Positions 2,621 through 30,851 of a stretch of 64,000 bases of DNA are shown piece after piece. The notes beneath the pieces are model-generated. The model was given only the letters and a program-made list of their open reading frames with translations, did no database searches and was not told where the DNA came from. Position numbers and translations under genes: made by a program. This stretch comes from Escherichia coli (lineage in GTDB: Bacteria; Pseudomonadota; Gammaproteobacteria; Enterobacterales; Enterobacteriaceae). Numbering within the stretch: the stretch's first letter is position 1; the number at the start of each line of letters is the position of its first letter. Location of the stretch: the NCBI RefSeq assembly GCF_044324785.1, contig NZ_CP172127.1; one strand, given 5' to 3'.

Positions 2621-3680
2621 TGGTTGCCCCCGTTTTTCCTGGCATTTCGCCACCTTCCAGCAGGAAATGAACGTCACGAACGGCGAGATCCAATATCGCG
2701 AGTAACGCCTTCAGTCTTTCGTCTCGTGAGGGAGAGTTGCTCACCAGAATGTCGTTAATCACTTCTGTCAGTGTGATGATCTGGCTTGTGCGTTCGAGGG
2801 GATCCATATGCACATCGTAGGTTTTAATCATGAGCCACCTCCATGCGGATACGACCAGCAAAAAAGCAGACGTGATCGCGCACCAGAGAACGGCGAGCAT
2901 CGCGTTCAGACTCGGCAGCAATATGATGAATTTTGGCGGTAATTGTCGGGCAATCGCGGCGAACTGCGGCGATAATCCAGATAAATTGCGGTTTTTGGGT
3001 AGGGGTAGTAGCCAGCATGTGGCAGCCTCCATTCGATAGCATGTAACGCTACCACCGGAAACGCCAATTTCGCTGGTGGTAGCCCAGACAGGGTTGGCGT
3101 AACCGGCTCGAATGGATACCGGCGCTTCCGAAGAAGCCCCTGCCTGAGCCACCATTGATTGACAAAGGCGCTGGATTATACACCAACGCCCAAAAAATGG
3201 GTGAGTCAGACCTACGACATAAAAAAAGACGCTCGGCGCGTCATATGTCGCCATTCGATTTACCAGGACGCCAATCCCGGCACCCGTTTTATGAGGTGCC
3301 TTATAACCATAAACCGTGTTGCCGCATAACGGCAAGCTCTTTTTTATGGACTCCGAAAACTCGCTATTGGAAGCACCAGATGCACAGTACATCGCGCTCA
3401 TTTCGTTAACGTCACGCACGTGGACGAATGTTTTTGTGGAGTCACTACACGAGCGGAAGACATCATCTACGACCAGAAATTTTCTGGCGCAGCCGCTGAC
3501 CTTCTCAACGCTAACACCATCGACCGTAATTTCTGACATAGTTAAGGCATCCGCTCCCACCACCAGAAAATGATAAACTTTGCTTGTATCTGCTGTATTA
3601 ATGCCAGACTTTGCTGTCATATTGCTGGATTTTGGCGACATACCTGCCAGTGAAAATGTCTTCTTCTGGACGGTTAGCAT
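2613..3680 (-). CDS. hypothetical protein; gene structure uncertain (355-aa ORF, possibly two genes)
   Basis: Single uninterrupted ORF with a GGAGG Shine-Dalgarno 7 nt before its ATG at 3680; however a second strong GGAGGTG ribosome-binding site precedes an internal ATG at 2831 and the middle of the ORF has a W/C-rich composition atypical of real protein. Confidence 0.3.
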
Positions 3681-3856
3681 TTGTTAACCTCCGCGAACTC
3701 CTTCATGAAACGTGCCAGCGGTTGTACGCATGGCGATTGATACCCGTCGCGATAAAACGTCACTCGGTTGTGAGACACGCTTTCGACAGTAACGAGTGCT
3801 CCGTGGGCATCTTTGTAGCGTTTTTGAGGTTGTGGTGTTCCTGTCGGCTTAAACAT
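3674..3856 (-). CDS. hypothetical small protein (about 60 aa)
   Basis: ORF 3674-3943 trimmed to internal ATG (MFKPTGTPQPQK...) so that it does not run deep into the upstream gene; stop abuts the next ORF start. Confidence 0.3.
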   Translation of the reverse strand: MFKPTGTPQPQKRYKDAHGALVTVESVSHNRVTFYRDGYQSPCVQPLARFMKEFAEVNKC

Positions 3857-4682
3857 GGACCGCCTCCAGACGCTTGGCGAGCCAGCGTTGCGACAGGCGG
3901 GTGAGTTCTCCTTTGCGCTGCTCATATTCCATGCCCATATCAATTAACGTGATATTGGTGCTTTCGAGATATGAGAGGTGCTCAAGCTGTTCTGCGTTCA
4001 TATGGTCGCGAGGTTCGCCAGAATAGCCATTTATCCGCGCCCACTGCTTAGCAGTTAGCCCACCAAGAACGATACGAGAAATCATATTGCTCTCGTTTGT
4101 GTAGTGGTGTTGCTGCGTCGTTTTCCCCTGCTCGGCACGGGCCATATTCAGCGCATCGCACATTGGCTTAAAGTTGTTTGCGGCACTAATACGGGCTTTT
4201 AGCTGGCGACGATAGCGGGCGGCGATTTCAGGCACGCTACGCTGTAATTCTTCCTCGCACTGGATGAAATAACGACGGATAGCGCGACCCTGATCATTGC
4301 GTTCGATCATTGCCAGTTCTTTCGCCATTCCGACACTTAACAGATAGTCTTTGCCGGGTCTGCCAGACTGCTTAATCTTGCTGTAAGCCGCGCCATTCGG
4401 GCTTTTCCCCAAATTTGGGGAAATTGTTTTATGGACTGAGTAATCGTGCCCAATGGTGAAGTCATATTCAGAGATGCGATCAGTGATCCATGTAGAGAAG
4501 TCTTTTCCCACGCCCAACGCTTTGTGTAACGCTTTTGCGCTAACAATATTGGTTTCACGCCCACCGATATGACCAGGAATAACCGGGACAATTGCGGCAA
4601 ATTCATTACCGTTAATTGTGCCCAGAGAGGCGTTCAGATGAGGGGCGGCCTCAGAAATTAATCTGCTTTTTTCGATGTTCAT
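3849..4682 (-). CDS. phage antirepressor-like protein (AntA N-terminal / KilA-C-like C-terminal)
   Basis: 277-aa ORF; sequence features reminiscent of prophage antirepressor families (…AKALHKALGVGKDFSTWITDRI… and C-terminal …ELAMIERNDQGRAIRRYFIQCEEEL…). Family call from memory, not searched. Confidence 0.5.
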   Translation of the reverse strand: MNIEKSRLISEAAPHLNASLGTINGNEFAAIVPVIPGHIGGRETNIVSAKALHKALGVGKDFSTWITDRISEYDFTIGHDYSVHKTISPNLGKSPNGAAYSKIKQSGRPGKDYLLSVGMAKELAMIERNDQGRAIRRYFIQCEEELQRSVPEIAARYRRQLKARISAANNFKPMCDALNMARAEQGKTTQQHHYTNESNMISRIVLGGLTAKQWARINGYSGEPRDHMNAEQLEHLSYLESTNITLIDMGMEYEQRKGELTRLSQRWLAKRLEAVHV

Positions 4683-6404: not shown

Positions 6405-7658
6405 TCATGCTCTGATTGGCGTTACGTTGTAGTCTTTTCCGCTTTCCAGTGCCACCAGCAGATCTGCCCACTGTGCTAGTGCTGCTTTACGCTCATCAAA
6501 ATACTGATGACGGTTATAAATCCCCTCTACGCCCTTAATGCGATGATTGAGGCATCGTTCCGCCACGACAGGATCAACACCCAATGCTGCTAAATGAGTA
6601 CGTGCGGTGCGTCGGAAGTCGTGAATCGTGAAATTAGGCACATCCGGAATTTCGGCGCGAACCTTAGCCAGTGCTACGGGTAAAGTGCTTTCCTGAATAT
6701 GTGGGATCATTCTGTTTTGCATCTTCCTGGCCGGAAGCACCCATGCGCTATTACATGAAAAGGTGTGTAGCTCTCTCAACCATTCAACGGCTGGGGAAGG
6801 TAGAGGTATATCAATAGGGTCTCCGTTTTTGCTGCGTTCTTCCGGCAAATGCCATACCGCACCATCTAAATCAAACTCTTCCCATCGTGCGGCGCATAAC
6901 TCCATCTTACGAACGCATAGTGCCAGCAATAGTTTAAATGTCAGTTCGTTTTGGCGGCTGAATCCTTTTGCGGTGCGCATAGCCTCGAATAGTCTGATAA
7001 GCTCATCGCGAGTTAGCCAACGGTCGCGGGAAACCTCTTTACCACCAGCATCAGATACTTCAAACGCTGAACAAGGGTTTATCTCCAGAGCGTGGCGTTT
7101 TATCCCATAGTCAAAGATACGGCGTGTCCAGCGCAATACATCTGTTGCTATCGTTGGTGCTCCTCGGTCAACGATACCTTTCAACATGTCGTCAATGTGG
7201 CGTGGCTTAACGTCCTCTACCTTCATATGCCCAATGCAGGGGTTAATATCCTTATCAATTCTCCGGCGAAGGATATCGGGATGTTTCCATCTCGGAAGTA
7301 TCTGGCGCTCGAAGTATTCGGAGGCCAGATCTGAAACACGCATGGCGTTTTTCTCAGCCTCCATTTTTGCCAGTGCTTCAGCTTTTCGTTCCTGTTTCTC
7401 TGCTGCTACGTCATAGCCAAGAGCAACTCTGGCTGACAGCTCTTTTGCTGTTTCTCTGGCTTTTGATAGTGACAGTTCGGAGTAAGAGCCTATAACCATA
7501 GCCCGCTGCTTTCCTGCGAGCTTATAGCGGAATCGCCAGAACGGGACTGTGTAGTTTTTGGGGTAGCAAATATAAAGGCCGTTGCCGTCTGCCTTGCCAT
7601 CAAATCTGTCTCCCGCCTTTATCCATGCGCGGATCTGCATATCTGTGAGTTTTGGCAT
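6405..7658 (-). CDS. int: tyrosine site-specific integrase, P4-type
   Basis: ORF 6405-7742 trimmed to MPKLTDMQIRAWIKAGDRFDG... (typical P4-integrase N-terminus); C-terminal catalytic region contains ...HDFRRTARTHLAALGV... and ...GIYNRHQY... (R/H-x-x-R/Y signature). Confidence 0.85.
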   Translation of the reverse strand: MPKLTDMQIRAWIKAGDRFDGKADGNGLYICYPKNYTVPFWRFRYKLAGKQRAMVIGSYSELSLSKARETAKELSARVALGYDVAAEKQERKAEALAKMEAEKNAMRVSDLASEYFERQILPRWKHPDILRRRIDKDINPCIGHMKVEDVKPRHIDDMLKGIVDRGAPTIATDVLRWTRRIFDYGIKRHALEINPCSAFEVSDAGGKEVSRDRWLTRDELIRLFEAMRTAKGFSRQNELTFKLLLALCVRKMELCAARWEEFDLDGAVWHLPEERSKNGDPIDIPLPSPAVEWLRELHTFSCNSAWVLPARKMQNRMIPHIQESTLPVALAKVRAEIPDVPNFTIHDFRRTARTHLAALGVDPVVAERCLNHRIKGVEGIYNRHQYFDERKAALAQWADLLVALESGKDYNVTPIRA

Positions 7659-7686
7659 TGCGAATACCTGAATATCGAATATGGGT

Positions 7687-7738
7687 GTGTACATAAAGCA
7701 ATGTACATGAAAGTCATTATGTACACCTCTATGTACAC
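7687..7738. promoter_or_regulatory. four direct copies of ATGTACA-like motif just upstream of int: candidate integrase arm-type binding sites / att region
   Basis: gtgtacat (7687-7694), atgtacatg (7701-7709), atgtacac (7719-7726), atgtacac (7731-7738) visible directly in sequence. Confidence 0.35.
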
Positions 7739-7783
7739 GCATATTGTGCGCTTTGTTGCGTCGTTATGATAGCTCATGATAAC

Positions 7784-9586: not shown

Positions 9587-9618
9587 GTCTGTAGAAAAGT
9601 AAGATGAGGAGCGAAGGC

Positions 9619-10260
9619 ATGAAACCATATCAGCGCCAGTTTATTGAATTTGCGCTTAGCAAGCAGGTGTTAAAGTTTGGCGAGTTTACGCTGAAGTCCG
9701 GGCGCAAAAGCCCCTATTTCTTCAACGCCGGGCTGTTTAATACCGGGCGCGATCTGGCACTGTTAGGCCGTTTTTACGCTGAAGCATTGGTGGATTCCGG
9801 CATTGAGTTCGATCTGCTGTTTGGCCCTGCTTACAAAGGGATTCCGATTGCCACCACAACTGCCGTGGCGCTGGCGGAGCATCATGACCTGGACCTGCCG
9901 TACTGCTTTAACCGCAAAGAAGCAAAAGACCACGGTGAAGGCGGCAATCTGGTCGGTAGCGCGTTACAAGGACGCGTAATGCTGGTGGATGATGTGATCA
10001 CCGCCGGAACGGCGATTCGCGAGTCGATGGAAATTATTCAGGCCAATGGCGCGACGCTTGCTGGCGTGTTGATTTCGCTCGATCGTCAGGAACGGGGGCG
10101 CGGCGAGATTTCGGCAATTCAGGAAGTTGAGCGTGATTACAACTGCAAAGTGATCTCTATCATCACCCTGAAAGACCTGATTGCTTACCTGGAAGAGAAG
10201 CCGGAAATGGCGGAACATCTGGCGGCGGTTAAGGCCTATCGCGAAGAGTTTGGCGTTTAA
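9619..10260 (+). CDS. pyrE: orotate phosphoribosyltransferase
   Basis: [40 protein letters not shown]...; PRTase motif [13 protein letters not shown]. Confidence 0.95.
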
Positions 10261-10525: not shown

Positions 10526-10557
10526 CCTCTTTTGGCCGCCGTGATGTGGAGAGTGGA

Positions 10558-11517
10558 ATGGATGCTACCCGGATAACCCTTCTGGCGCTCGATTTGTTCG
10601 GCTCGCCGGGCTGGAGCGCCGATAAAGAAATACAGCGGCTGTATGCGCTCAGTAATCATGCCGGACGCCATTACCGACGCATTATTCTTTCTAAACGCCA
10701 CGGTGGTCAGCGGCTGGTGTTAGCCCCTGATTACTTGCTCAAAACCGTACAGCGCAACATTCTTAAGAACGTTCTTTCACAATTTCCGCTTTCCCCTTTT
10801 GCTACAGCCTACCGACCAGGTTGCCCAATTGTCAGCAACGCGCAGCCTCACAGCCAACAGCCACAAATACTGAAACTCGATATCGAAAACTTTTTCGATA
10901 GTATTAGCTGGTTACAGGTCTGGCGTGTGTTTCGCCAGGCCCAGTTGCCACGTAATGTGGTAACCATGCTGACCTGGATTTGTTGTTATAACGACGCGTT
11001 ACCGCAGGGGGCACCAACTTCGCCAGCCATTTCCAATCTTGTGATGCGCTGTTTTGATGAGTGCATCGGGGCATGGTGCCAGGCACGAGGAATTACCTAC
11101 ACCCGCTACTGCGATGACATGACTTTTTCAGGTCACTTCAATGCCCGCCAGGTTAAAAATAAAGTGTGCGGATTGTTAGCGGAGATGGGCCTGAGCCTCA
11201 ATCAACGCAAAAGCTCCCTGATAGCTGCCTGTAAGCGCCAGCAGGTAACCGGGATTGTTGTTAATCACAAACCACAGCTTGCCCGCGAAGCGCGGCGGGC
11301 GCTGCGTCAGGAAGTACACTTATGCCAAAAATATGGCGTCATTTCGCATCTTAGTCGTCGTGGTGAACTTGATCCTTCATGCGATCTCCATGCACAGGCA
11401 ACGGCGTATCTTTATGCTTTGCAGGGAAGAATAAACTGGCTATTGCAAATCAATCCTGAGGATGAGGCCTTTAAACAGGCGAGGGAAAGTGTAAAGCGAA
11501 TGCTGTTGGCATGGTAA
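10558..11517 (+). CDS. ret: retron-type reverse transcriptase (319 aa)
   Basis: Start at ATG 10558 preceded by GGAGAG; contains RT motifs ...LPQGAPTSPAISNL... and ...ITYTRYCDDMTFSG... (YxDD box); size typical of retron RTs with no extra fused domain. Confidence 0.9.
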   Translation: MDATRITLLALDLFGSPGWSADKEIQRLYALSNHAGRHYRRIILSKRHGGQRLVLAPDYLLKTVQRNILKNVLSQFPLSPFATAYRPGCPIVSNAQPHSQQPQILKLDIENFFDSISWLQVWRVFRQAQLPRNVVTMLTWICCYNDALPQGAPTSPAISNLVMRCFDECIGAWCQARGITYTRYCDDMTFSGHFNARQVKNKVCGLLAEMGLSLNQRKSSLIAACKRQQVTGIVVNHKPQLAREARRALRQEVHLCQKYGVISHLSRRGELDPSCDLHAQATAYLYALQGRINWLLQINPEDEAFKQARESVKRMLLAW

Positions 11518-11560: not shown

Positions 11561-12157
11561 TTACTGCAACTGTGCGGCAATTAGCGGCCAGCGGGCGTCA
11601 AAATCATCCGTCGGGCGGTATTTAAACTCGCTGCGGACAAAGCGTGACAGCATACCTTCACAGAAGGCCAGGATCTGGCTTGCCAGCAGGGTTTCATCGG
11701 TGGTGTAACCTTCACCCTCACGCATTCTCTTTTCGCGCAATACCTGACGCAACTGCGCTTCAATACGCTCGAACAGCTGGTTGATGCGCCCTTGCAGGCG
11801 ATCCTGTTCAAACATTAGTGCATGACCAGTGAGGATGCGGGTCAGGCCAGGATTACGCTCACCAAAACCGAGAAGCAGCAACACAATCAGACGCAGGCGC
11901 GCTGTGGTGTCCTTCTCATCTTTCAGAATCAGATTGATGCGAGTAATCAGGCTATCTTCGATAAACTCAATCAGGCTATCGAACATGCGGGTCTTACTGG
12001 GGAAGTGGCGATACAGTGCCGCTTCGGAAACGCCGACAGAGGCGGCCAGTTTTGCCGTCGTGATACGTTGGCTTCCATCGCTGGATTCCAGCATCAGCGC
12101 CAGAGACTGAAGTATTTCCTCGCGACGGTTCCTTTTCGCAGTTTGTTTTTCTGCCAT
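11561..12157 (-). CDS. slmA: nucleoid occlusion factor SlmA (TetR family)
   Basis: ORF trimmed to [52 protein letters not shown]... Confidence 0.9.
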
Positions 12158-12263
12158 GTTACAAAATACCCCTGAAAATAAGCACTTGCCAGGCGGCACC
12201 CACGCTATGACCGCAAACGAAATGTTTGCGGCTATGTTATGACGTTATTCGGATGCGTATGTG

Positions 12264-16346: not shown

Positions 16347-18111
<1,765 letters not shown>

Positions 18112-18424
18112 AGTAAATAGCTGACTTATGGATGTGCTGGGGATTCTATGTATTTAGCTGTGGCTTTACCATTACTTTTCCCGTTTTTGACTTAAATAGC
18201 AATTTACCCGCCAATTCTTGCTGAACATCTATACTTTTTTTGTATTTTTATGCGATTCATTGATTTCTGCAGTACGTGCAGGAAGGAATCGCAGAGCAAC
18301 AGTGAAAGAATATGGTTGCTAATGATTTTATTTGATTGATTTCTTTATTGAAAATCAACAATGTGCTTAAAAATCATTCGGGTCGGATTGCCGCGAAAGA
18401 AGTGATACACTAGCGCGTCAATAT

Positions 18425-18474
18425 CAGTGCGGTATCAGTATTCAGGTAGCTGTTGAGCCTGGGGCGGTAGCGTG
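18425..18474 (+). promoter_or_regulatory. JUMPStart element containing ops site (GGCGGTAGCGTG) for RfaH-dependent antitermination of the waaQ operon
   Basis: cagtgcggtatcagtattcaggtagctgttgagcctggggcggtagcgtg read directly; ops 12-mer at 18463-18474. Confidence 0.8.
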
Positions 18475-18523
18475 CTTTTTCTGCTTCACCTTAATCGGAT
18501 AATCTCAACAAAAAGAGTTACTT

Positions 18524-19582
18524 GTGGATAAGCCATTTCGAAGAATTTTGCTCATTAAGATGCGTTTTCATGGGGATATGTTATTAACTACTCCCGTCAT
18601 TAGTTCGCTGAAAAAAAATTACCCTGACGCAAAAATCGATGTGCTGCTTTATCAGGACACCATCCCGATCCTGTCTGAAAATCCAGAGATTAACGCGCTC
18701 TACGGCATAAAAAATAAAAAAGCAAAAGCCTCAGAAAAAATTGCCAACTTTTTTCATCTCATCAAGGTATTACGTGCCAATAAGTATGACCTTATCGTCA
18801 ATCTTACCGATCAATGGATGGTTGCTATACTGGTTCGCTTATTAAATGCCCGTGTGAAAATTTCCCAGGATTATCATCATCGGCAGTCTGCTTTTTGGCG
18901 TAATAGTTTCACTCATTTGGTGCCGTTGCAGGGTGGAAATGTGGTGGAAAGTAACTTATCCGTGCTATCGCCATTGAGACTTGAATCGTTGGTGAAGCAG
19001 ACAACCATGAGTTACCCGCCTGCAAGCTGGAAACGTATGCGTCGCGAACTTGATCACGCTGGTGTTGGACAAAATTATGTGGTTATCCAACCTACGGCGC
19101 GGCAAATCTTCAAATGCTGGGACAACGCCAAGTTTTCCGCTGTGATTGATGCCTTACATGCTCGTGGTTATGAAGTCGTTCTGACGTCCGGCCCAGATAA
19201 AGACGATCTGGCCTGCGTCAATGAAATTGCCCAGGGATGCCAGACGCTACCAGTAACGGCGCTGGCCGGAAAGGTGACCTTCCCGGAACTTGGTGCGTTA
19301 ATCGATCATGCCCAGCTGTTTATTGGCGTTGATTCCGCACCGGCGCATATTGCCGCTGCAGTTAATACGCCGCTGATATCGCTGTTTGGTGCGACAGACC
19401 ATATTTTCTGGCGTCCCTGGTCAAATAACATGATTCAATTCTGGGCGGGAGATTACCGGGAAATGCCAACGCGCGATCAGCGTGACCGAAATGAGATGTA
19501 TCTTTCGGTTATTCCGGCGGCAGATGTCATTGCTGCTGTCGATAAATTACTGCCCTCCTCCACGACAGGTACGTCGTTATGA
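18524..19582 (+). CDS. waaQ: LPS heptosyltransferase III
   Basis: GTG start at 18524 keeps the conserved heptosyltransferase N-terminus (RRILLIK...GDML.TTPV); product recognised as WaaQ. Confidence 0.8.
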   Translation: MDKPFRRILLIKMRFHGDMLLTTPVISSLKKNYPDAKIDVLLYQDTIPILSENPEINALYGIKNKKAKASEKIANFFHLIKVLRANKYDLIVNLTDQWMVAILVRLLNARVKISQDYHHRQSAFWRNSFTHLVPLQGGNVVESNLSVLSPLRLESLVKQTTMSYPPASWKRMRRELDHAGVGQNYVVIQPTARQIFKCWDNAKFSAVIDALHARGYEVVLTSGPDKDDLACVNEIAQGCQTLPVTALAGKVTFPELGALIDHAQLFIGVDSAPAHIAAAVNTPLISLFGATDHIFWRPWSNNMIQFWAGDYREMPTRDQRDRNEMYLSVIPAADVIAAVDKLLPSSTTGTSL

Positions 19583-20703
19583 TCGTTGCTTTTTGTTTAT
19601 ATAAATATTTTCCCTTTGGCGGTTTGCAGCGCGATTTCATGCGTATTGCTCAGACAGTCGCCGCCCGAGGTCATCATGTTCGGGTTTATACCCAGTCGTG
19701 GGAAGGCGAATGCCCTGATGTATTTGAACTGATCAAAGTGCCGGTTAAATCGCATACCAATCACGGGCGCAATGCGGAGTATTTTGCCTGGGTGCAAAAA
19801 CATTTACGCGAACATCCCGTCGATAGAGTCGTTGGATTTAATAAAATGCCGGGGCTGGACGTTTATTATGCCGCTGATGTTTGTTATGCCGAGAAAGTAG
19901 CGCAGGAAAAAGGCTTTTTCTATCGCCTGACGTCACGTTATCGCCATTATGCCGCCTTTGAGCGGGCAACCTTCGAACAGGGCAAGCCGACACAGCTGCT
20001 GATGCTGACAGATAAGCAAATCGCCGATTTCCAGAAACATTATCAGACTGAAGCGGAGCGTTTTCATATTCTGCCACCGGGGATTTATCCTGATCGTAAA
20101 TATAGCCAGCAGCCAGCCAATAGCCGTGAAATCTTCCGTAAGAAGAATGGAATAACCGAACAACAATATTTATTGTTGCAGGTCGGTTCAGACTTCACGC
20201 GTAAAGGTGTCGATCGTTCCATTGAAGCACTTGCTTCATTACCGGATACGCTGCGCCACAACACATTGCTATATGTTGTTGGGCAGGATAAACCGCGAAA
20301 ATTTGAGGCGCTGGCAGAAAAACGCGGCGTGCGCAGTAATGTTCACTTCTTCTCGGGGCGCAACGATGTCTCGGAATTAATGGCGGCGGCGGATTTATTA
20401 CTGCATCCTGCCTACCAGGAAGCGGCGGGAATTGTGCTGCTGGAAGCGATTACTGCAGGATTACCGGTACTAACAACTGCCGTTTGCGGCTATGCGCATT
20501 ATATTGTCGACGCCAATTGCGGCGAGGCTATTGCTGAGCCATTCCGCCAGGAAACATTGAATGAGATTTTACGCAAAGCGTTAACGCAATCTTCATTGCG
20601 CCAGGCCTGGGCGGAAAATGCGCGACATTATGCTGATACACAAGATTTATACAGTCTGCCAGAAAAAGCGGCGGATATCATAACGGGTGGTCTGGATGGT
20701 TGA
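19579..20703 (+). CDS. waaG: LPS core glucosyltransferase I (GT4)
   Basis: 374-aa [42 protein letters not shown]... Confidence 0.9.
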
Positions 20704-21493
20704 ACTTAAAGAGCCGTTTGCCACGTTATGGCGCGGTAAAGATCCTTTTGAGGAAGTTAAAACCTTGCAGGGTGAGGTTTTTCGTGAACTGGAAACTCGC
20801 CGCACTCTGCGCTTTGAAATGGCGGGCAAAAGCTATTTTCTCAAATGGCATCGCGGCACGACCCTGAAAGAGATAATCAAAAATTTACTCTCATTACGGA
20901 TGCCAGTATTAGGCGCAGACCGCGAATGGAATGCGATTCATCGACTGCGGGATGTCGGCGTTGATACTATGTATGGGGTGGCATTCGGCGAAAAAGGCAT
21001 TAATCCGCTGACCAGAACCTCGTTTATTATAACCGAAGATCTGACACCAACCATCAGTCTGGAAGATTACTGTGCTGACTGGGCGACTAACCCTCCAGAT
21101 GTTCGCGTAAAGCGTATGCTTATTAAGCGTGTCGCGATGATGGTGCGCGATATGCATGCTGCGGGCATTAACCACCGTGACTGTTATATCTGTCATTTCC
21201 TGCTGCACTTGCCTTTTTCCGGTAAGGAAGAGGAGTTAAAAATTTCGGTAATTGACCTGCACCGGGCGCAGCTTCGCACGCGCGTTCCACGTCGTTGGCG
21301 CGATAAAGATCTTATTGGGCTTTATTTTTCTTCGATGAATATCGGCCTGACTCAGCGGGATATCTGGCGGTTTATGAAAGTGTATTTTGCCGCCCCGCTT
21401 AAAGACATTCTCAAGCAGGAACAAGGACTGCTGTCGCAAGCAGAAGCAAAAGCCACAAAAATCAGGGAAAGAACGATTAGAAAATCGTTGTAA
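20696..21493 (+). CDS. waaP: LPS core heptose I kinase
   Basis: ORF trimmed to [41 protein letters not shown]... Confidence 0.9.
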
Positions 21494-21535
21494 CCCGTAA
21501 CTTATTTTTGCCAAAAATTTGGATACAGAGTAAAT

Positions 21536-22543
21536 ATGTCTCAACTCAATGATAGTGACATCATCCTTTTTGAGTATAATTTTCATTATCAAAATATAAG
21601 ATCTAAAAATACTCTTGATATAGCATTTGGTATTGACAGAAATTTTCTTTTTGGATGTGGTGTAGCCATTGCATCTATTCTATTAAACAATAGCGAAATC
21701 TCTTGTGAATTTCATGTTTTCACAGATTATATCAGTGATAAAGACAAGTTATATTTTTCCGATTTAGCAAAACAATATAATTCAAGAATTAATATTTATG
21801 TTATCAATTGTGATAAGCTGAAGTCATTACCAAGCACGAAAAACTGGACTTACGCAACATATTTTCGATTTATAATTGCAGATTATTTCTATAATAAACA
21901 TGAAAAAATACTATATCTTGATGCAGATATTGCTTGCAAGGGTAGTATTAAAGAACTCTTAGATTATCAATTTTCTACTAATGAAATTGCCGCAGTTGTA
22001 GCTGAAAGAGATATTGAATGGTGGCAGAATCGAGCCTCGGTATTAACTACACCACAATTAGGTTCTGGATATTTCAATGCTGGTTTTTTGCTGATAAATA
22101 TTGATGAGTGGAATCTAAATAACATTTCGTCAAAAGCTATTGAAATGCTGCGTGACCCAGATTGGGTAAGTAAAATCACCCACCTTGATCAAGATGTACT
22201 GAATGTATTATTGAATGGTAAAGTGAAGTTTGTTTCGGGGAAATATAATACCCGATATAGTATTAACTATGAATTAAAAGACAAAGTTGATAATCCAGTT
22301 AATGATGACACCGTGTTTATACACTATGTGGGACCTACAAAACCCTGGCATGAGTGGGCTGATTATCCGGTGTCACGTAGTTTTTTGATCGCCAAAGCAG
22401 CTTCTCCGTGGTGTAAAGAAGATTTACTTAAACCTGTGAATAGCAATCAGTATCGGTATTGTGCAAAACATAAATTTAAACAAAAGCATTATATTGCAGG
22501 CATTTTTAATTATTTAAAGTATTATAAAGAAAAATGCTTCTAA
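21536..22543 (+). CDS. waaI: LPS outer-core glycosyltransferase, family GT8 (WaaI/WaaO-like; first outer-core alpha-1,3 hexosyltransferase)
   Basis: 335-aa ORF with GT8 features (FGIDRNF..., DxD in LYLDADI, C-terminal HYVGPTKPWHEW); AT-rich. Symbol is an R3-type assignment inferred from gene order. Confidence 0.55.
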   Translation: MSQLNDSDIILFEYNFHYQNIRSKNTLDIAFGIDRNFLFGCGVAIASILLNNSEISCEFHVFTDYISDKDKLYFSDLAKQYNSRINIYVINCDKLKSLPSTKNWTYATYFRFIIADYFYNKHEKILYLDADIACKGSIKELLDYQFSTNEIAAVVAERDIEWWQNRASVLTTPQLGSGYFNAGFLLINIDEWNLNNISSKAIEMLRDPDWVSKITHLDQDVLNVLLNGKVKFVSGKYNTRYSINYELKDKVDNPVNDDTVFIHYVGPTKPWHEWADYPVSRSFLIAKAASPWCKEDLLKPVNSNQYRYCAKHKFKQKHYIAGIFNYLKYYKEKCF

Positions 22544-22568
22544 AGATTTAAGGTTAAAATAATTCAAT

Positions 22569-23276
22569 ATGATATATAATAAAACGATAAATGGGTTGAA
22601 AGTTTTCATAAAAGATAATGATCCCTTTTATGAGCAAGTTCTGAATGACTTTTTAACTTGCAGGGTTAAAACATTAAAAGTTTTTCGTTCTATTGATGAT
22701 ACTAAAGTCATTCTTATTGACACTGCTCGTGGACCTCTTGTACTTAAAGTTTATGCGCCAAAGCATAAAATGATCGAACGTTTCTTAAAATCTTGCATAA
22801 AAAAAGATTATTATGAAAATTTAATTTATCAAACCGATCGGGTACGTGGTGAAGGCATTCAATCAATTAATGACTATTTTTTGCTTGCTGAACGTAAAAC
22901 ATTAAATTTCGCGCATTATTATATTATGCTCATTGAGTATATTGAAGGTGTCGGGTTAAATGAGTATTTGGAAATTTCTGAAGAACTGAAGGATCAATTA
23001 TCAGAATCGATAAAAGAGTTGCATCAGCATGGAATGGTGTCTGGCGATCCTCATAAAGGAAATTTTATAGTATCTGAAAAAGGTTTAAGACTAATTGACC
23101 TTTCAGGTAAAAAAACAACCGCAGTTTTAAAAGCAAAAGATCGCATTGATCTTGAACGGCACTATAATATAAAAAATGAATTGAAAGACTTTGGCTATAC
23201 ATATCTTATATTCAAAAAGAAAATTAAAAAAGCAATCAGGGATGTAAAAGTCAAACTAGGCTTGAAGAGCAAATAA
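22569..23276 (+). CDS. waaY: LPS core heptose II kinase
   Basis: 235-aa ORF, kinase-like (...HQHGMVSGDPHKGNFIVSEKGLRLIDLSGK...). Confidence 0.75.
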   Translation: MIYNKTINGLKVFIKDNDPFYEQVLNDFLTCRVKTLKVFRSIDDTKVILIDTARGPLVLKVYAPKHKMIERFLKSCIKKDYYENLIYQTDRVRGEGIQSINDYFLLAERKTLNFAHYYIMLIEYIEGVGLNEYLEISEELKDQLSESIKELHQHGMVSGDPHKGNFIVSEKGLRLIDLSGKKTTAVLKAKDRIDLERHYNIKNELKDFGYTYLIFKKKIKKAIRDVKVKLGLKSK

Positions 23277-23300
23277 TGATTATGATGAAGGGTAATTAAA

Positions 23301-24314
23301 TTGGATTTTAAACATCTTACTCAATTTAAAGATATAATTGAACTGGACAAGCGCCCCGTTAAACTTGATGAACGGGAAACGTTTAATGTCTCATGGGGTA
23401 TTGATGAGAACTACCAGGTTGGGGCTGCGATTTCAATTGCTTCAATTCTTGAAAATAATAAACAAAACAAATTTACCTTTCACATAATCGCTGATTACTT
23501 AGACAAAGAGTATATTGAATTATTATCACAATTAGCAACGAAGTATCGAACAGTAATTAAATTATATCATATTGATTCTGAGCCATTGAAGGCGCTACCT
23601 CAATCAAATATCTGGCCAGTATCTATTTATTATCGTTTGCTTTCATTTGATTATTTTTCTGCGCGATTGGATTCATTATTATATCTTGATGCTGATATCG
23701 TCTGTAAGGGTTCATTGAACGAGTTAATAGCATTAGAGTTTAAAGATGAATATGGGGCTGTGGTAATTGATGTAGATGCTATGCAAAGTAAAAGCGCTGA
23801 GCGTTTATGTAATGAGGATTTTAACGGTAGCTATTTTAACTCTGGTGTAATGTATATTAATTTACGGGAATGGTTACAACAAAGACTAACGGAGAAATTC
23901 TTTGATCTATTATCAGATGAGTCAATTATCAAAAAATTAAAGTATCCGGATCAAGATATTTTAAACTTAATGTTTTTACATCATGCTAAAATATTACCGA
24001 GAAAATATAATTGTATTTATACTATAAAGTCAGAATTTGAAGAAAAAAATAGTGAATATTACACCCAGTTTATTAATGATGAAACTGTCTTCATACATTA
24101 TACTGGTGTAACTAAGCCATGGCATGATTGGGCGGACTACGCATCTGCAGATTATTTTCGTAATATTTATAATATATCTCCATGGAGAAACATACCTTAT
24201 AAAAAAGCTGTTAAAAAACATGAGTACAAAGAAAAATATAAACACTTGCTTTACCAGAAAAAATTTCTCGATGGTGTTTTTACAGCAATTAAATATAATG
24301 TTATGAAAGGTTAA
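23301..24314 (+). CDS. waaJ: LPS outer-core glycosyltransferase, family GT8 (WaaJ-like alpha-1,2-glucosyltransferase)
   Basis: 337-aa ORF with GT8 features (SWGIDENYQVGA..., LYLDADIVCKG, HYTGVTKPWHDW). Symbol inferred from order. Confidence 0.55.
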   Translation: MDFKHLTQFKDIIELDKRPVKLDERETFNVSWGIDENYQVGAAISIASILENNKQNKFTFHIIADYLDKEYIELLSQLATKYRTVIKLYHIDSEPLKALPQSNIWPVSIYYRLLSFDYFSARLDSLLYLDADIVCKGSLNELIALEFKDEYGAVVIDVDAMQSKSAERLCNEDFNGSYFNSGVMYINLREWLQQRLTEKFFDLLSDESIIKKLKYPDQDILNLMFLHHAKILPRKYNCIYTIKSEFEEKNSEYYTQFINDETVFIHYTGVTKPWHDWADYASADYFRNIYNISPWRNIPYKKAVKKHEYKEKYKHLLYQKKFLDGVFTAIKYNVMKG

Positions 24315-24322
24315 TATTCGAG

Positions 24323-25465
24323 ATGGTTGATAAAATAATATTTACAGTTACTCCTATTTTTTCAATTCCTCCTCGCGGAGCGGCCGCTGTTGAAACGTGG
24401 ATGTATCAGGTTGCTCAGCGTACCAATTTCCCAAATCGTATTGTTTGTATCAAGAATCCAGGATACTCAAATTACACCTTTGTTAATGATAATTGTAGTA
24501 TTCATAGGGTTGGATTCAGTCGCATATATAAGCGGTTATTTCAAAAATGGACAAGACTTGATCCTCTTCCATATTCACAGAGAATATTGAATATTGCCCA
24601 TGATTTTCCTATAACGAAAGAAAGTGTTATTGTAGTTCATAATAGCATGAAGCTATACACTCAAATTCGTAAGCGAGCTCCTCAGGCAAGAGTGGTTATT
24701 CATATGCATAATGCATTTGAACCAAAATTGCTTGAGCAAAATGTTAAAATGATAGTGCCTAGTTTATACTTGAAAAAGTATTACCAATCTTATTTAGCAA
24801 ATGCAGATATTGAGATTGTACCAAATGGAATTGATTTAGAAACCTATCAATCTACTTTTCAGCCGATCACTAGAAGCGAACTTAATATCTCCCCTGAAGA
24901 GAAAATTATTTTTTATGCTGGGCGTATCGTCCCTGATAAAGGCATATTACTGTTGATGCAATCATTCGAAAAATTGGCCGCTGCTCACAAAAATTTAAAA
25001 TTAGTTGTGATTGGTGATTATACAGAAATGAGTAAAAGTGACAAAGGTGCATATCAACACAATGTCAGGGAAATTGCAAAACGTTTGAAGGATCGTTGCA
25101 TTATGTTAGGAAGCATACCGCCTGAAAAGATGCATTGTTATTACCCACTGGCAGATTTAGTCATCATTCCTTCCCAGTTCCAGGAACCATTTTGCATGGT
25201 GGCAATTGAAGCTATGGGGGCTGGTAAGCCTGTTTTAGTGAGTACGCGTGGGGGGATGACGGAATTTGTCAAAGAAAATACTACGGGATTCCATTTAAAA
25301 GAACCTATGACTGCAGACTCTATAAGCAGCGATATTTTAAAAACGTTAGCGAATCCTGAATTAACAGCAGTTGCAAAGCAAGGTCAGGATTTTGTGTTTG
25401 ATCACTACAGTTGGGATGGCGTAACTCAAAGATTTGAAGAGGTCATTCATAATTGGTTTGAATAA
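24323..25465 (+). CDS. waaD: LPS outer-core glycosyltransferase, family GT4 (WaaD-like, R3-type terminal transferase)
   Basis: 380-aa ORF with GT4 EX7E-type region (...EPFCMVAIEAMGAGKPVLVSTRGGMTEFV...). Symbol is a tentative R3-type assignment. Confidence 0.45.
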   Translation: MVDKIIFTVTPIFSIPPRGAAAVETWMYQVAQRTNFPNRIVCIKNPGYSNYTFVNDNCSIHRVGFSRIYKRLFQKWTRLDPLPYSQRILNIAHDFPITKESVIVVHNSMKLYTQIRKRAPQARVVIHMHNAFEPKLLEQNVKMIVPSLYLKKYYQSYLANADIEIVPNGIDLETYQSTFQPITRSELNISPEEKIIFYAGRIVPDKGILLLMQSFEKLAAAHKNLKLVVIGDYTEMSKSDKGAYQHNVREIAKRLKDRCIMLGSIPPEKMHCYYPLADLVIIPSQFQEPFCMVAIEAMGAGKPVLVSTRGGMTEFVKENTTGFHLKEPMTADSISSDILKTLANPELTAVAKQGQDFVFDHYSWDGVTQRFEEVIHNWFE

Positions 25466-25467
25466 AT

Positions 25468-25500
25468 AAAAAGGCCGCATTATGCAGCCTTTTTTATTTT
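25468..25500. terminator. hairpin plus T-rich tract between convergent waaD-like and waaL
   Basis: aaaaaggccgcattatgcagccttttttatttttt. Confidence 0.4.
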
Positions 25501-26709
25501 TTACTTGTTTTTCATTGCTAATAATAAGCCGGCGTAAACGCCTAATAAATTTGGTTCAATTTGTTCTACGTTTCCACGGATAACAAAATAACCTATAAAA
25601 GATAGTAAGATTATATAATATGCATTATATGGTGAGCGGTTTTTATTCTGGACGCCATTTTTTATACACTCTTTCAATATTGCACAGTATAGCATCATAA
25701 GACTTATCAGCCCTAATAAACCAGTGCCAAACCAGATGAATAGCGCAAAATTATGTGGCCCTATCGATTGTCTAAAGGTCCATTCTGGATAATCAACGAC
25801 ACGTTTATTATAGACATCTTTATATGCAACGTTACCGTAACCGTAACCAATAACAGGATTTTCTAATATTAGATCGAGTGCGCTGCCTTGAGTACCATTT
25901 GCATAGCGATAAGAACTATTAGTTTGTTGAAGTTTATACGTTAGCTTTGCGGTCATCTCCTTATGTGTGAAAATAACCGACAATGCAATGATGGAAACCA
26001 TTACTCCTACTAATAGTAACTTCCATTGTTTAAACATCAGAATCCATATTAATCCAATGACTAACACGGAAAGCCAGGCCCCTCTGGATAAAGTTCCTAA
26101 TATCAGAAAAATAAAAATAAAGCTTAGAACCACAAAAGAAATGCGGTATTTTGCTGATTTGATAAGCCAGAGATTTAACAATGCAGGGAATAAAAAGACC
26201 ATCGAGTCAGAAATGCTACGGTGTCTATAATCTGCGAATGGCATTATCCCTTGTTGATAGTCCTTATAATAGGCAATCAATTCAGAAAAACAGCGTAAGC
26301 CCAACGCACTAATAAATGAGAAGAAAACGATTTTTTCGACATCTTCTCTTTTCTCGTCTCTCAATATGACTGGTATTGCTATTGTGCATAGTAAAGTATT
26401 CTCAATAATAGCTTTGAAAATTTCCTTCATGCTAGCCCCTGCATCAGGGGATTGAAGAAGTGACAGCAATGCAGCAATAGTTAATATGGCAACACTACCA
26501 AAAAGAAATGTTTTAAATAGTGAGAGATAGTGTTTTGGCCGTTTGCAGAGATAGACGATTGTCGTTATTGTCATAAGAATAACAATAAGATGTTTATACC
26601 TTGTAATCCCACCCAAAAAATAGGTGGTAATGAATAAGAATACGAGAGCTCTGTTCCAGTACGCTATCCAGTTTTTTTTCTCGAGAGAGAAAAATAATGT
26701 TGAGGTCAT
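25501..26709 (-). CDS. waaL: O-antigen ligase
   Basis: 402-aa polytopic membrane protein, AT-rich, located upstream of waaC in the hldD-waaF-waaC-waaL operon. Confidence 0.8.
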   Translation of the reverse strand: MTSTLFFSLEKKNWIAYWNRALVFLFITTYFLGGITRYKHLIVILMTITTIVYLCKRPKHYLSLFKTFLFGSVAILTIAALLSLLQSPDAGASMKEIFKAIIENTLLCTIAIPVILRDEKREDVEKIVFFSFISALGLRCFSELIAYYKDYQQGIMPFADYRHRSISDSMVFLFPALLNLWLIKSAKYRISFVVLSFIFIFLILGTLSRGAWLSVLVIGLIWILMFKQWKLLLVGVMVSIIALSVIFTHKEMTAKLTYKLQQTNSSYRYANGTQGSALDLILENPVIGYGYGNVAYKDVYNKRVVDYPEWTFRQSIGPHNFALFIWFGTGLLGLISLMMLYCAILKECIKNGVQNKNRSPYNAYYIILLSFIGYFVIRGNVEQIEPNLLGVYAGLLLAMKNK

Positions 26710-27698
26710 CTTATCTCCGATGTCAACTTATTGATTATTATTTCAAGATTTAAATTTTGAAAAACGGTTTGAGCTGGCAAATCTGCAAGAGACATACTTG
26801 TAGAACGACACTCTACTTGATTCTTCCCATACCCACCAATTAATCCCGGATCGGTTGGTCCATAAACCGTGATATTGGGTCTATCCAGTGCCGCCGTTAA
26901 ATGGCTTAACCCCGTATCCACCGACACTACAAATTTAGCCCCGGCCAGCACGCGGGCAACGCCTTCCAGACTCATCTTCGGCAATACTTCAACATAAGCA
27001 AATCCTTCCGCCAGTCGTTTCGCCCGTTCTTCCTCATGCGGCGCGCCCCACGGAAGTTTAATCCGTATTCCTGAATCAGCCAGTAAACCAATCAATTCTC
27101 GCCAGTGTTCTTCCGGCCAGTGTTTATCATCACGGGTCGTCGCATGAAGAAATACGGCATATTCGCCAGCATCTGTAGGCAGGTTCGTCAGGAAATGCTG
27201 TGCAATAGCATAATCGCCCTGGGTTTGCGGTTTGCTATAGCCCAGACTTTTGGCAAACAGTTCGCGGGTGCGTTCTACGGCGTGCTGCTGTTTTGCAATA
27301 TGATGCTTACGATTGTAAAACAGGCTGGCTAACGGTTCGCGAGCGGTTTGCCAGTCCAATCCATGCTTTACGCCATGCGCCAGACGTGTCACCAGTGCCG
27401 CGCTTTTTACCAGCCCCTGAGCGTCGATAACTGCGTCATAGTTCTCTGCTTGTAGCGCTTCACGAAACGCTTTGCGTTCAGCTTTTATGGGGGCCGAGAA
27501 CCAGGCTTTACGCCAGCGACGTATTGCCACAGGAATAACTCGCTCAACGGCAGCGTGCCAGGAAGGAATCTGTGCGAACCCTTCTTCCACCACCCAGTCA
27601 AACTTAATCCCTGGGATTGCCTGCTGGGCATCAGTGAGTGCGGGCAACGTATGGAGAACATCGCCCATCGACGATGTTTTAACGATCAAAACCCGCAT
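26706..27698 (-). CDS. waaC: LPS heptosyltransferase I
   Basis: MRVLIVKTSSMGDVLHTLPALTDAQQAIPGIKFDWVVEEGF... Confidence 0.9.
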   Translation of the reverse strand: MRVLIVKTSSMGDVLHTLPALTDAQQAIPGIKFDWVVEEGFAQIPSWHAAVERVIPVAIRRWRKAWFSAPIKAERKAFREALQAENYDAVIDAQGLVKSAALVTRLAHGVKHGLDWQTAREPLASLFYNRKHHIAKQQHAVERTRELFAKSLGYSKPQTQGDYAIAQHFLTNLPTDAGEYAVFLHATTRDDKHWPEEHWRELIGLLADSGIRIKLPWGAPHEEERAKRLAEGFAYVEVLPKMSLEGVARVLAGAKFVVSVDTGLSHLTAALDRPNITVYGPTDPGLIGGYGKNQVECRSTSMSLADLPAQTVFQNLNLEIIINKLTSEIR

Positions 27699-27701
27699 CC
27701 G

Positions 27702-28748
27702 TCAGGCTTCCTCTTGTAACAATAGTGCGTTGAGTTCTTCCAGTACGTGCTGGGGAGTAATGTCGATCAAGCTCTGGTGATAACCCTCCGCAGCGTCACC
27801 TTTACGCACTTTGTGATAGCCGGTAATCAGACGGATCACGCGCGCTTTATGGGATAGCGGTGGTGTGAAGTCCGGGCTACTCGGACCATACAGGGCAACC
27901 AGCGGACGATTGAGCGCCGCCGCAACGTGCATCAGACCAGAATCGTTAGTAACAATGGCTTTACAGGCTGCAATCAGGATAACCGCTTGATCAAGCTGTG
28001 TTTCCCCCGCCAGGTTACGACACCATGCCTGCTGCTCGGTATTCAAAGCGGCAAGAATCTCATTGCCCGCTTCATGATCTTTCGCCGAGCCAAACAGAAC
28101 CACCTGATAACCTTCATCAATCAGCTGCTTTGCCAGCTCCGCATAGTGGTAGTGTGGCCACCGTTTTGCCGGACCAAACTCCGCACCCGGGCAAAAGCCA
28201 ATCATCGGACGTTCTGATGAAAGCGAAAATTGATTACAGGTATATGATTTTTCACCTTCGCTCACCTGCAACTGCGGCCATAACAATGGCTGCGGCAGAT
28301 CTTGTGCTGTACGCATAATGCCTTTGTCATAGGCCAGCGCGACATAGCGTTCCACCATTAGCGGCCAGGCTTCTTTATCGAGCACGCGTACATCGTTGAG
28401 TAAACCGTAGCGCATCTCGCCGCGCCAGCCGGTGCGATGAGGAATACCCGCGAAGAAAGGCACTAATGCGGACTTGAAGGAGTTGGGTAAGACGTAGGCG
28501 CGGTCGTAGCGCTTTTCACGCAGACTATGACCCAGTTTGCGGCGTTCGCCGATTTCCAGCGCTCCGTGACCGAGAGGCATAGGGATAGCTTCGTTAACTT
28601 CCGGCATCCGCGATAATAATGGACGGCACCATGCCGGTGCCATCACGTCGATTATCGCCTGGGGATAGCGCGCCTGGAGCGTGCGATAGAGACTTTGCGA
28701 CATCATCATGTCGCCAACCCAAGACGGGCCGATCACCAGTATTTTCAT
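27702..28748 (-). CDS. waaF: LPS heptosyltransferase II
   Basis: MKILVIGPSWVGDMMMSQSLYRTLQARYPQAIIDVMAPAWCRPLL... Confidence 0.9.
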   Translation of the reverse strand: MKILVIGPSWVGDMMMSQSLYRTLQARYPQAIIDVMAPAWCRPLLSRMPEVNEAIPMPLGHGALEIGERRKLGHSLREKRYDRAYVLPNSFKSALVPFFAGIPHRTGWRGEMRYGLLNDVRVLDKEAWPLMVERYVALAYDKGIMRTAQDLPQPLLWPQLQVSEGEKSYTCNQFSLSSERPMIGFCPGAEFGPAKRWPHYHYAELAKQLIDEGYQVVLFGSAKDHEAGNEILAALNTEQQAWCRNLAGETQLDQAVILIAACKAIVTNDSGLMHVAAALNRPLVALYGPSSPDFTPPLSHKARVIRLITGYHKVRKGDAAEGYHQSLIDITPQHVLEELNALLLQEEA

Positions 28749-28757
28749 GCAGAGCTC

Positions 28758-29690
28758 TTATGCGTCGCGATTCAGCCAGGCCATGTATTCCGTTACACCT
28801 TCCGCAACGGTTTTGAACGGTTTGTCGTAACCCGCCGCGCGCAGATTTGTCAGATCTGCCTGCGTGAACGCCTGATAGCGGCCTTTCAGTTTATCCGGGA
28901 ACGGAATGTATTCGATCTGGCCTTTCTTGTGATAAGCAAGCGTTGCATCGGCTACTGCCTGGAAGGATTCTGCACGACCGGTGCCGAGGTTGAAGATGCC
29001 GGAAACGCCATTTTCCAGGAACCACAGATTCACATCAGCCACGTCGCCCACATAGACGAAGTCGCGTTTGAAGTTCTCGCTACCTTCAAACAGCTTCGGT
29101 GATTCACCGTTGTTAAGCTGGGTGTTGAGATGGAAAGCGACGCTCGCCATGCTGCCTTTATGGCCTTCACGCGGTCCATAAACGTTGAAATAACGGAATC
29201 CAACAATCTGCGAGTTGGCTTCCGGCAGGATTTGGCGAACATATTCATCAAACAGGAATTTTGAGTAACCGTAGACGTTCAACGGTTTTTCGTACTCGCG
29301 GGATTCAATAAAGTCGGAGGTGCGTCCGCCGTAGGTGGCTGCGGAAGAGGCATACAGGAACGGGATTTCGCGCTCCAGACAGTAGTGCAACAGCTCTTTG
29401 GAGTATTGATAGTTGTTATCCATCATATACTTGCCATCCCACTCGGTGGTGGAAGAGCATGCGCCCTCGTGGAAAATCGCTTCGACATCACCGAACTCTT
29501 CGCCAGCCATAATCTGGATCAGGAAGTCTTCCTTATCCATATAGTCCGCGATATTCAGATCCACCAGGTTCACAAACTTGGTGCCGTCTTTCAGGTTGTC
29601 CACCACCAGAATATCGGTGATGCCTTTATCATTCAGGGCCTTAACGATGTTGCTGCCGATAAAGCCCGCGCCGCCGGTAACGATGATCAT
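28758..29690 (-). CDS. hldD: ADP-L-glycero-D-manno-heptose 6-epimerase
   Basis: [42 protein letters not shown]... Confidence 0.95.
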
Positions 29691-29993
29691 AACTGTAACC
29701 TTCGAATTATGGAGTCAGAGACAATCTCAGACACGAATGTCTGTAATCATACCATCACATCCGAATCCCTTCAGCCCTTTACATAGAGGTGCAAGGATGC
29801 TAATTGCAACAAACTAGTTTGGGTTTTAGCGAGTCCTTCATGGCGGATGTTGGTTTTGTATGTGAATAGTGCTTTAGTATCAATATTCCGATGTATGATA
29901 AATAACGGAAGCATTTGAATGGATAATATACAGTATACATTCTGTTAATATTTATGATATAATTCTTTTTTTATATTAATGGTCTTATTAGTA

Positions 29994-30851
29994 ATGAAAT
30001 CATCCACCACAATTATCACTGCATATTTTGACATTGGTAGAGGGGATTGGACTGCTAATAAAGGGTTCCGTGAAAAACTAGCTCGTTCAGTTGATGTTTA
30101 TTTTAGTTACTTTGAGCGTCTGGCCGCACTTGAAAATGAGATGATTATTTTCACTTCTCCCGATTTGAAACCAAGGGTTGAAGCGATTCGCAACGGAAAA
30201 CCAACAACGGTTATCGTTATCGATATAAAAAAGAAATTTAGATATATCAGAAGTCGTATCGAAAAAATTCAAAAAGATGAGTCGTTTACAAATAGACTTG
30301 AGCCGCGGCAATTAAAAAACCCAGAGTACTGGTCACCAGAGTATGTATTGGTATGTAACCTTAAGGCCTATTTTGTAAATAAAGCTATCAACATGGGCTT
30401 AGTGAAAACGCCTCTTGTTGCGTGGATAGATTTTGGCTATTGCCGTAAGCCAAATGTAACTCGAGGATTGAAAATTTGGGATTTCCCATTTGATGAAAAT
30501 AAGATGCATCTTTTCACTATAAAAAAAGGGCTTACTGTCACATCTCAACAACAGGCTTTTGATTTCATGATTGGCAATCATGTATATATTATTGGTGGCG
30601 CAATTGTTGGTTCACAGCATAAATGGAAAGAATTCTATAAATTAGTTCTGGAAAGTCAAAAAATAACCCTAAACAATAACATTGTGGACGATGACCAGGG
30701 CATCTTTGTCATGTGCTATTACAAACGTTCCGATCTCTTCAACCTAAACTATCTGGGGAGAGGAAAATGGTTCGATTTGTTTCGCTGCTTCAGGAGTAAC
30801 ACTTTAGGGGCAAAAATGCAGGCGCTGAGAATTTTCCTTTCAAGAAAATAG
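29994..30851 (+). CDS. htrL: HtrL/YibB family protein
   Basis: ORF trimmed to MKSSTTIITAYFDIGRGDWTANKGF...; AT-rich gene at the conserved position between hldD and kbl. Confidence 0.75.
   Translation: MKSSTTIITAYFDIGRGDWTANKGFREKLARSVDVYFSYFERLAALENEMIIFTSPDLKPRVEAIRNGKPTTVIVIDIKKKFRYIRSRIEKIQKDESFTNRLEPRQLKNPEYWSPEYVLVCNLKAYFVNKAINMGLVKTPLVAWIDFGYCRKPNVTRGLKIWDFPFDENKMHLFTIKKGLTVTSQQQAFDFMIGNHVYIIGGAIVGSQHKWKEFYKLVLESQKITLNNNIVDDDQGIFVMCYYKRSDLFNLNYLGRGKWFDLFRCFRSNTLGAKMQALRIFLSRK

Follow-up and report, generated by a model that had tools for sequence, protein, structure and literature searches.

The closest described counterparts of the element analysed here are the waaQ leader of Escherichia coli K-12, with its small RNA RirA, and the leader of the rfa operon in strain CFT073. 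The requirement of the waaQ operon for RfaH, and the RirA RNA itself, have been treated in several studies (PMC6358824, PMC5736990, PMC8745692). In vitro, transcription pauses at C9 and U11 of the ops element; positions 3-8 of this element form the core contacted by RfaH and T11/G12 is the pause dinucleotide, while G4, G5, A7 and G8 are essential for RfaH recruitment, T6 is flipped out of a hairpin that the non-template DNA forms with C3:G8 as its closing pair, and pausing requires G12 (PMC5995543). ChIP-seq analysis of CFT073 revealed that RfaH joins RNA polymerase at the ops element of the rfa leader and stays bound across the unit, and deletion of rfaH reduced the progression of polymerase and led to premature termination within the rfa operon (PMC9765446).

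The segment considered here lies at 18425-18474 of a 64-kb stretch of E. coli DNA, referred to below as the window. Its sequence, strand and position, the gene content and base composition of the operon that follows it, and its conservation, all of which were observed directly, identify it with high confidence as the JUMPStart/ops leader of the waaQ (rfaQ) lipopolysaccharide (LPS) core operon of an R3-type E. coli, where RfaH would load at ops for full-length transcription. Nothing in the sequence stands against this explanation. The element is already known, is orthologous to the K-12 waaQ leader and RirA, and adds no new biology; the sequence-only reading that preceded this analysis had called it an expected, known feature, a description borne out by the published experimental support for the same sequence in K-12 and for the rfa leader of CFT073.

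The ops motif and its JUMPStart context

The preceding reading had reported an exact 12-nt ops sequence, and GGCGGTAGCGTG is indeed found at 18463-18474 (+) with no mismatch to ops; it is unique in the window, being the single match even when one mismatch is allowed, with 0.26 matches expected. In this copy the core positions 3-8 correspond to 18465-18470 and T11/G12 to 18473/18474, and the 12-mer agrees with the family consensus GGCGGTAGnnTG: its central C3-G8 is intact and the pause dinucleotide T11-G12 is in place. All of the bases found to be required in the in vitro work are present (PMC5995543). The motif is on the non-template strand, since ops and the genes from waaQ through the waaD-like gene are all (+). 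A second ops 12-mer was not found within the waaQ operon. The 8-nt core GGCGGTAG has three other copies in the window, at 13389 (-), 44620 (-) and 55911 (+), and these were rejected as ops sites, as they continue with CGCA, GCCT and TGAC, thus lack TG at positions 11-12, and have no JUMPStart context.

The block around the motif, for which the letters at 18424-18483 read TCAGTGCGGTATCAGTATTCAGGTAGCTGTTGAGCCTGGGGCGGTAGCGTGCTTTTTCTGC, had been described as JUMPStart-like, and this was upheld by a cmscan search of the whole window with Rfam 15, in which the JUMPstart family RF01707 scores 55.2 bits at 18436-18474 (+), where the gathering threshold is 35 (E=6.4e-10); the alignment covers all 38 model positions and contains no non-canonical pairs. 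The canonical 39-nt JUMPStart element, with ops at its 3' end, therefore occupies 18436-18474 (+); of the limits first proposed for the block, 18425-18474, the end holds exactly, but the start lies 11 nt upstream of the canonical element. Those 11 nt (18425-18435, +) are an upstream box, CAGTGCGGTAT, which duplicates the JUMPStart 5' box and is kept in orthologous leaders. Directly 3' of ops, at about 18475-18480 (+), a C is followed by a T-run (CTTTTT), and the T-run is also kept in most orthologous leaders.

The Rfam structure line places the JUMPStart RNA stem-loop at 18443-18461 (+), with CAGGU (18443-18447) and GCCUG (18457-18461) enclosing a 9-nt loop. This stem is paired in 99.6% of cells across the 48 leaders aligned below, one pair varying among AU, GU and GC, and its 3' base (18461) is 12 nt upstream of the 3' end of RNA paused at U11, so that, judging by position, it would sit roughly where an RNA hairpin lies directly behind polymerase paused at ops and might limit backtracking or affect the pause.

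The waaQ operon

The divergent placement of the element between waaA and waaQ, as first read, is also correct. The Kdo transferase gene waaA (16834-18111, -; NCBIfam NF004385, 905 bits, and RefSeq annotation) bounds the intergenic region on one side and the heptosyltransferase gene waaQ/rfaQ (18524-19582, +; NF007742, 710 bits) on the other, leaving a gap of 412 bp (18112-18523) in which ops ends up 49 nt before the GTG start of waaQ. That start, at 18524, is supported by tblastn, whose matches in other genera extend from residue 1 of the open reading frame, and the RefSeq rfaQ start in a strain with an identical leader is the equivalent GTG. It is preceded only by AAGAG (18513-17), a weak Shine-Dalgarno sequence, in agreement with published descriptions of RfaH-type operons that have no canonical ribosome-binding site.

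Downstream of waaQ, NCBIfam equivalogs and the RefSeq annotation of the best-matching strain identify waaG (19579-20703, +), waaP (RfaP; 20696-21493, +), a waaI/O-type alpha-1,3-galactosyltransferase gene (21536-22543, +), waaY (RfaY; 22569-23276, +), a waaJ-like GT8 glycosyltransferase gene (23301-24314, +) and a waaD-like LPS GlcNAc transferase gene (24323-25465, +). These seven co-directional genes, separated by gaps of at most 42 nt, form an operon of 6.9 kb (18524-25465, +), which fits the earlier description of a long waaQ operon that includes strain-specific outer-core genes, the distal ones here being AT-rich and of R3 type. The waaL, rfaC, rfaF and rfaD genes come after the operon on the - strand; we take the order waaQ-G-P-I-Y-J-D, with waaL in an opposing operon, to represent the R3 core type. 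The element thus adjoins a polysaccharide cluster, as a JUMPStart sequence does, and heads the LPS core operon waaQGP-I-Y-J-D.

The operon probably ends at a palindromic hairpin with an A-run, a 12-bp stem (5 GC pairs) and a T-run, which a terminator scan located at 25468-25494; this separates the waaD-like gene from waaL, which converge on it, and is likely to be a bidirectional terminator. G+C content is about 48% over waaQ-waaP and 28-39% from 21500 to 26500, the four distal genes of the operon all being in the range 28-39%. This fall in G+C matches the AT-rich, H-NS-bound operons that RfaH is reported to serve (PMC9765446).

The waa region as a whole (18112-30000) is 98.7-98.8% identical to its best match among 5426 complete E. 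coli genomes, and the leader is 100% identical in many of them; the exact R3-type waa haplotype of the window is therefore absent from those 5426 genomes.

Predicted transcription start and pause site

In MG1655, the 73-nt non-coding RNA gene rirA (b4760) is annotated at 3808166-3808238 (-) and reads TCAAAGTAAGTGCGTTATCAGTATTCAGGTAGCTGTTGAGCCTGGGGCGGTAGCGTGCTTTTTTCTGCTTAAC on the waaQ strand. Its homologue in the window, the 5' part of the waaQ leader, is found at 18418-18489 (+), with 67 of 73 positions identical and one 1-nt gap. By homology to the K-12 rirA/waaQ 5' untranslated region, whose 5' end corresponds to 18418 of the window, ops is placed within a transcribed untranslated leader, and the K-12 RirA 5' end suggests that waaQ transcription starts at about 18418, some 45 nt upstream of ops. 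An extended -10 sequence, TGaTACACT (18403-18411, +), ends 6 nt before this position and is kept in the K-12 and window alleles and in the Kluyvera leaders, so it is probably an element of the waaQ promoter. A scan of the intergenic region for sigma-70 -35/-10 pairs did not call TGaTACACT and returned two weak promoter-like sites at chance frequency; the promoter assignment therefore relies on the K-12 RirA 5' end.

Published Term-seq data from K-12 list strong RNA 3' ends at MG1655 3808184 and 3808183 (-), with 62,669 and 116,952 reads (PMC7815308, supplements 1 and 3), and these ends have a Rho score of 1.04, classed as not Rho-dependent, and an intrinsic-terminator score of 6.28 (PMC7815308). 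By the flanking sequence printed with them they fall at G10 and U11 of ops, so that the equivalent ops pause site in the window is predicted at 18472-18473 (+). The pause position, the binding of RfaH and its effect have been demonstrated by others on an identical sequence, and by analogy the same behaviour would be expected here. The annotated 3' end of RirA does not coincide with the abundant Term-seq ends, which are 17-18 nt upstream, at the ops pause, and would correspond to an RNA of 55-56 nt; the literature searched contained nothing explicit on a RirA terminator or on RirA in Term-seq data.

Conservation within E. coli

The 412-bp intergenic region has a match in 5424 of 5426 complete E. 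coli genomes, where it occurs as two alleles: 4431 records are at least 99% identical to the window, and 935, including a K-12-like laboratory strain, are 60-80% identical. The 48-nt block at 18432-18479 is present as one copy each in 5412 of the 5426 genomes and is 100% identical in 4906. This block, which contains ops, is invariant between the window and K-12 alleles, although the intergenic regions as a whole are only about 80% identical.

Alignment of the window with the K-12-like allele reveals three zones, namely 89 identical bases beside waaA, a strongly diverged middle of about 165 bp, and a conserved zone that begins with TAAAAATCATTCGGGTCGG and takes in the promoter region, JUMPStart, ops and the T-run. 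The waaA-waaQ spacer (18112-18523) thus has the structure of a mosaic allele. The leader allele of the window is found with both R1 and R3 outer-core genes; in the R1-type strain 7/2 the intergenic region is 100% identical and the outer-core genes are different. The O157:H7 strain PV15-279 has the same 48-nt leader block.

Conservation across Enterobacterales

Comparison with other waaQ leaders, one of the checks that the sequence-only reading had proposed, was extended across the order by a scan for WaaQ in one genome per species (GTDB), which yielded 72 loci. An exact copy of the ops core, GGCGGTAG, precedes the waaQ match by 49-64 nt in 45 distinct leaders. The genera with such a leader include Escherichia, Citrobacter, Salmonella, Kluyvera, Silvania, Pluralibacter and Pseudocitrobacter, as well as Kosakonia, Cedecea, Buttiauxella, Shimwellia, Leminorella and Intestinirhabdus. 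When these 45 leaders were aligned with the window and two decayed copies from Kluyvera (48 rows), ops showed no variation at positions 2-3 and 5-11 and almost none at positions 1, 4 and 12, whereas the flanks were variable.

In Providencia, Arsenophonus, Moellerella, Hartigia and Siccibacter, the 3 kb preceding waaQ contain no JUMPstart match, and in Brenneria and one of two Superficieibacter loci the match is located 1.3-1.5 kb upstream of waaQ, ahead of another gene. These loci, in which ops is missing or displaced, indicate that the element at its exact waaQ-leader position is confined to part of the order, chiefly the Enterobacteriaceae.

The two decayed copies come from Kluyvera intermedia (L011:2897-2972) and K. 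cryocrescens (L072:2897-2972), where the leader is kept and ops has decayed to AGCGGTAGCGTA and AAGCAGTAGCGTA, respectively. Rfam made no JUMPstart call in either of these waaQ leaders, and it is possible that RfaH control of waaQ has been lost or relaxed in both species.

Proposed route to full-length transcription

Every sequence-level feature of an ops/JUMPStart leader is thus present at this locus, which supports the RfaH-dependent antitermination that had been proposed from the DNA alone. By analogy with the published systems, RNA polymerase would start at about 18418, transcribe JUMPStart and pause at U11 of ops (18473), where non-template GGCGGTAGCGTG, exposed in the open bubble, would fold into a small hairpin that presents G5/T6. 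Autoinhibited RfaH would bind this hairpin, open, and remain attached to the polymerase throughout the remainder of the operon, and the modified polymerase would resist pausing, Rho-dependent termination and roadblocks formed by H-NS/StpA. The refolded KOW (C-terminal) domain of RfaH would then recruit a ribosome to waaQ, with its GTG start and weak AAGAG Shine-Dalgarno sequence, and, as a predicted outcome, all of the 6.9-kb operon would be expressed, including the AT-rich outer-core genes at its distal end. The short RNA from the 5' leader, with JUMPStart and ops in it, would be the counterpart of the K-12 small RNA RirA, which is reported to counteract RfaH.

A tblastn search of the 64-kb window with an approximate RfaH query did not find rfaH; the strain presumably has this gene elsewhere and behaves like the published strains. 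Its LPS core operon, including the R3-specific AT-rich outer-core genes, has the standard RfaH control signal, and the completion of the core, the attachment of O antigen, and phenotypes towards serum and phage would be expected to depend on rfaH as they do in other E. coli. The comparison also has value for annotation, in that most RefSeq records lack annotations for the leader, the RirA homologue and the ops pause site.

A possible terminator hairpin in the leader

A different role for the leader, which would add a step to RfaH loading at ops and not replace it, is that the upstream box, the JUMPStart stem and transcribed ops (to 18476) form one long hairpin followed by a U-run, that is, an intrinsic terminator. 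Such an attenuator would stop polymerases without RfaH and release a RirA-like RNA, while RfaH-modified polymerase would read through. We consider this unlikely, on balance, and the folding data divide as follows. Folding the RNA from 18418 to 18489 at minimum free energy (MFE) gives one interrupted hairpin (-19.3 kcal/mol), with the U-run directly after it. Its outer helix joins AGUGCG (18426-18431) to CGUGCU (18471-18476), which comprises the 3' half of ops and the following CU; further in, UAUC/GU is paired to GC/GGUA, and the tip is the Rfam stem. However, the leader folds no better than shuffled sequence (z = -0.66).

Conservation of the pairing is similarly double-edged. Across the 48 leaders the outer helix is 89% paired, and the whole hairpin has 93% of cells paired compared to 30-51% after a shift of the 3' partners by 1-3 columns; a few double changes occur in the outer helix, for example G-C to A-U in Cedecea (ACACG/CGUGU) and Enterobacter sp. 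Ag1. Yet the tested structure came from a sequence that is itself in the alignment, most of the variation consists of transitions on one side only, opposite G or U, where pairing persists trivially, and RNAalifold, given the same 48-leader alignment, predicts only the inner stem and a small hairpin internal to ops, with the outer helix absent.

The data on RNA ends and on the U-run are likewise divided. The score of 6.28 that the Term-seq authors assigned at the leader 3' end exceeds the value of at least 3 regarded as suggestive of an intrinsic terminator, and the annotated RirA 3' end is 14 nt beyond the hairpin, but the K-12 3' ends are at ops G10/U11, inside the proposed 3' arm, and the published list contains none within or beyond the U-run or at the RirA end. 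At least 4 T are present within 9 nt after ops in 36 of the 48 distinct leaders, but the U-run is missing in the other 12, and a simple terminator scan of the intergenic region returned no terminator.

The broader proposal that a long hairpin is conserved in the waaQ leaders found in Escherichia, Citrobacter, Salmonella, Kluyvera and Cedecea, and that the RfaH loading site serves at the same time as the 3' arm of a terminator, is regarded as slightly more doubtful still. If it were true, RfaH loading at ops would decide within about 10 nt between termination, yielding a RirA-type RNA, and elongation, and the part of JUMPStart outside ops would gain a defined function.

Other explanations of the block

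A further proposal, which we judge very improbable, is that the block is mainly a small RNA gene (RirA) that titrates RfaH in trans and not a loading site in cis. The annotation of MG1655 rirA over the homologous segment and the abundance of short leader RNAs in the Term-seq data (PMC7815308) are in its favour, but RfaH recognizes ops as non-template DNA in a paused complex (PMC5995543), and its occupancy extends from the leader ops over the whole rfa operon (PMC9765446). The trans effect of RirA is known by overexpression only, and roles in trans and in cis are compatible.

There is next to no reason to regard the block as a functionless chance 12-mer, which the Rfam score and the positional conservation across genera with diverged flanks exclude, or as a DNA-level recombination anchor for swapping core-type cassettes, a reading that could draw on the intergenic mosaic between alleles, on the position of the conserved block at the border of the variable segment and on the occurrence of one leader allele with both R1 and R3 outer-core genes, but that leaves the strand specificity, the fixed distance to waaQ and the published RfaH and pause data unexplained.

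Other features of the window

Upstream of waaA, a 323-aa reverse transcriptase open reading frame at 10546-11517 (+) matches the PADLOC model RT_Ec107-like (E=5.5e-132) and is situated between pyrE (9604-10260) and slmA (11561-12199, -), and the distance from pyrE to waaA is about 1.26 kb longer in the window than in strain 7/2 or K-12. This position fits the insertion site of retron Ec107; no msr/msd RNA was located. The first 7742 nt of the window are a phage-like integrative island beside yicC, with genes for a tyrosine integrase (6405-7742, -), an AntA/AntB antirepressor (3849-4682, -) and an ash-family protein (2613-3680, -), a DUF927 protein at its left edge, and Rfam matches to C4 antisense RNA (3072-3159, -) and isrK (3222-3299, -). 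On the same side of yicC, K-12 and strain 7/2 have dinD, yicG and ligB.

Comparison with known systems

The nearest known system is the K-12 waaQ leader with RirA (b4760), which shares with the window its locus, orientation, extended -10 sequence and, approximately, its distance to waaQ. The 48 nt at 18432-18479 are identical in both, and K-12 has one extra T beyond them; across the 73-nt RirA span the window differs by five substitutions and the deletion of one T. The two loci also differ in the mid-intergenic allele (about 80% identity overall) and in the outer-core genes, which in the window are of R3 and not of K-12 type.

Relative to RF01707, a family found upstream of O-antigen, capsule, haemolysin and other polysaccharide clusters, the waaQ version has the same 5-bp stem, 9-nt loop and 3'-terminal ops, but its 5' end reads CAGUAUUC where the consensus has CAGCGCAC, and it has an extra CAGTGCG box 11 nt further upstream. 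The distal genes of CFT073, which we take to be of R1 core type, would differ from those of the window. The rfa operon of that strain nevertheless provides the functional parallel, as an AT-rich, H-NS-bound operon with a single leader ops in which RfaH travels with RNA polymerase over the whole unit (PMC9765446).
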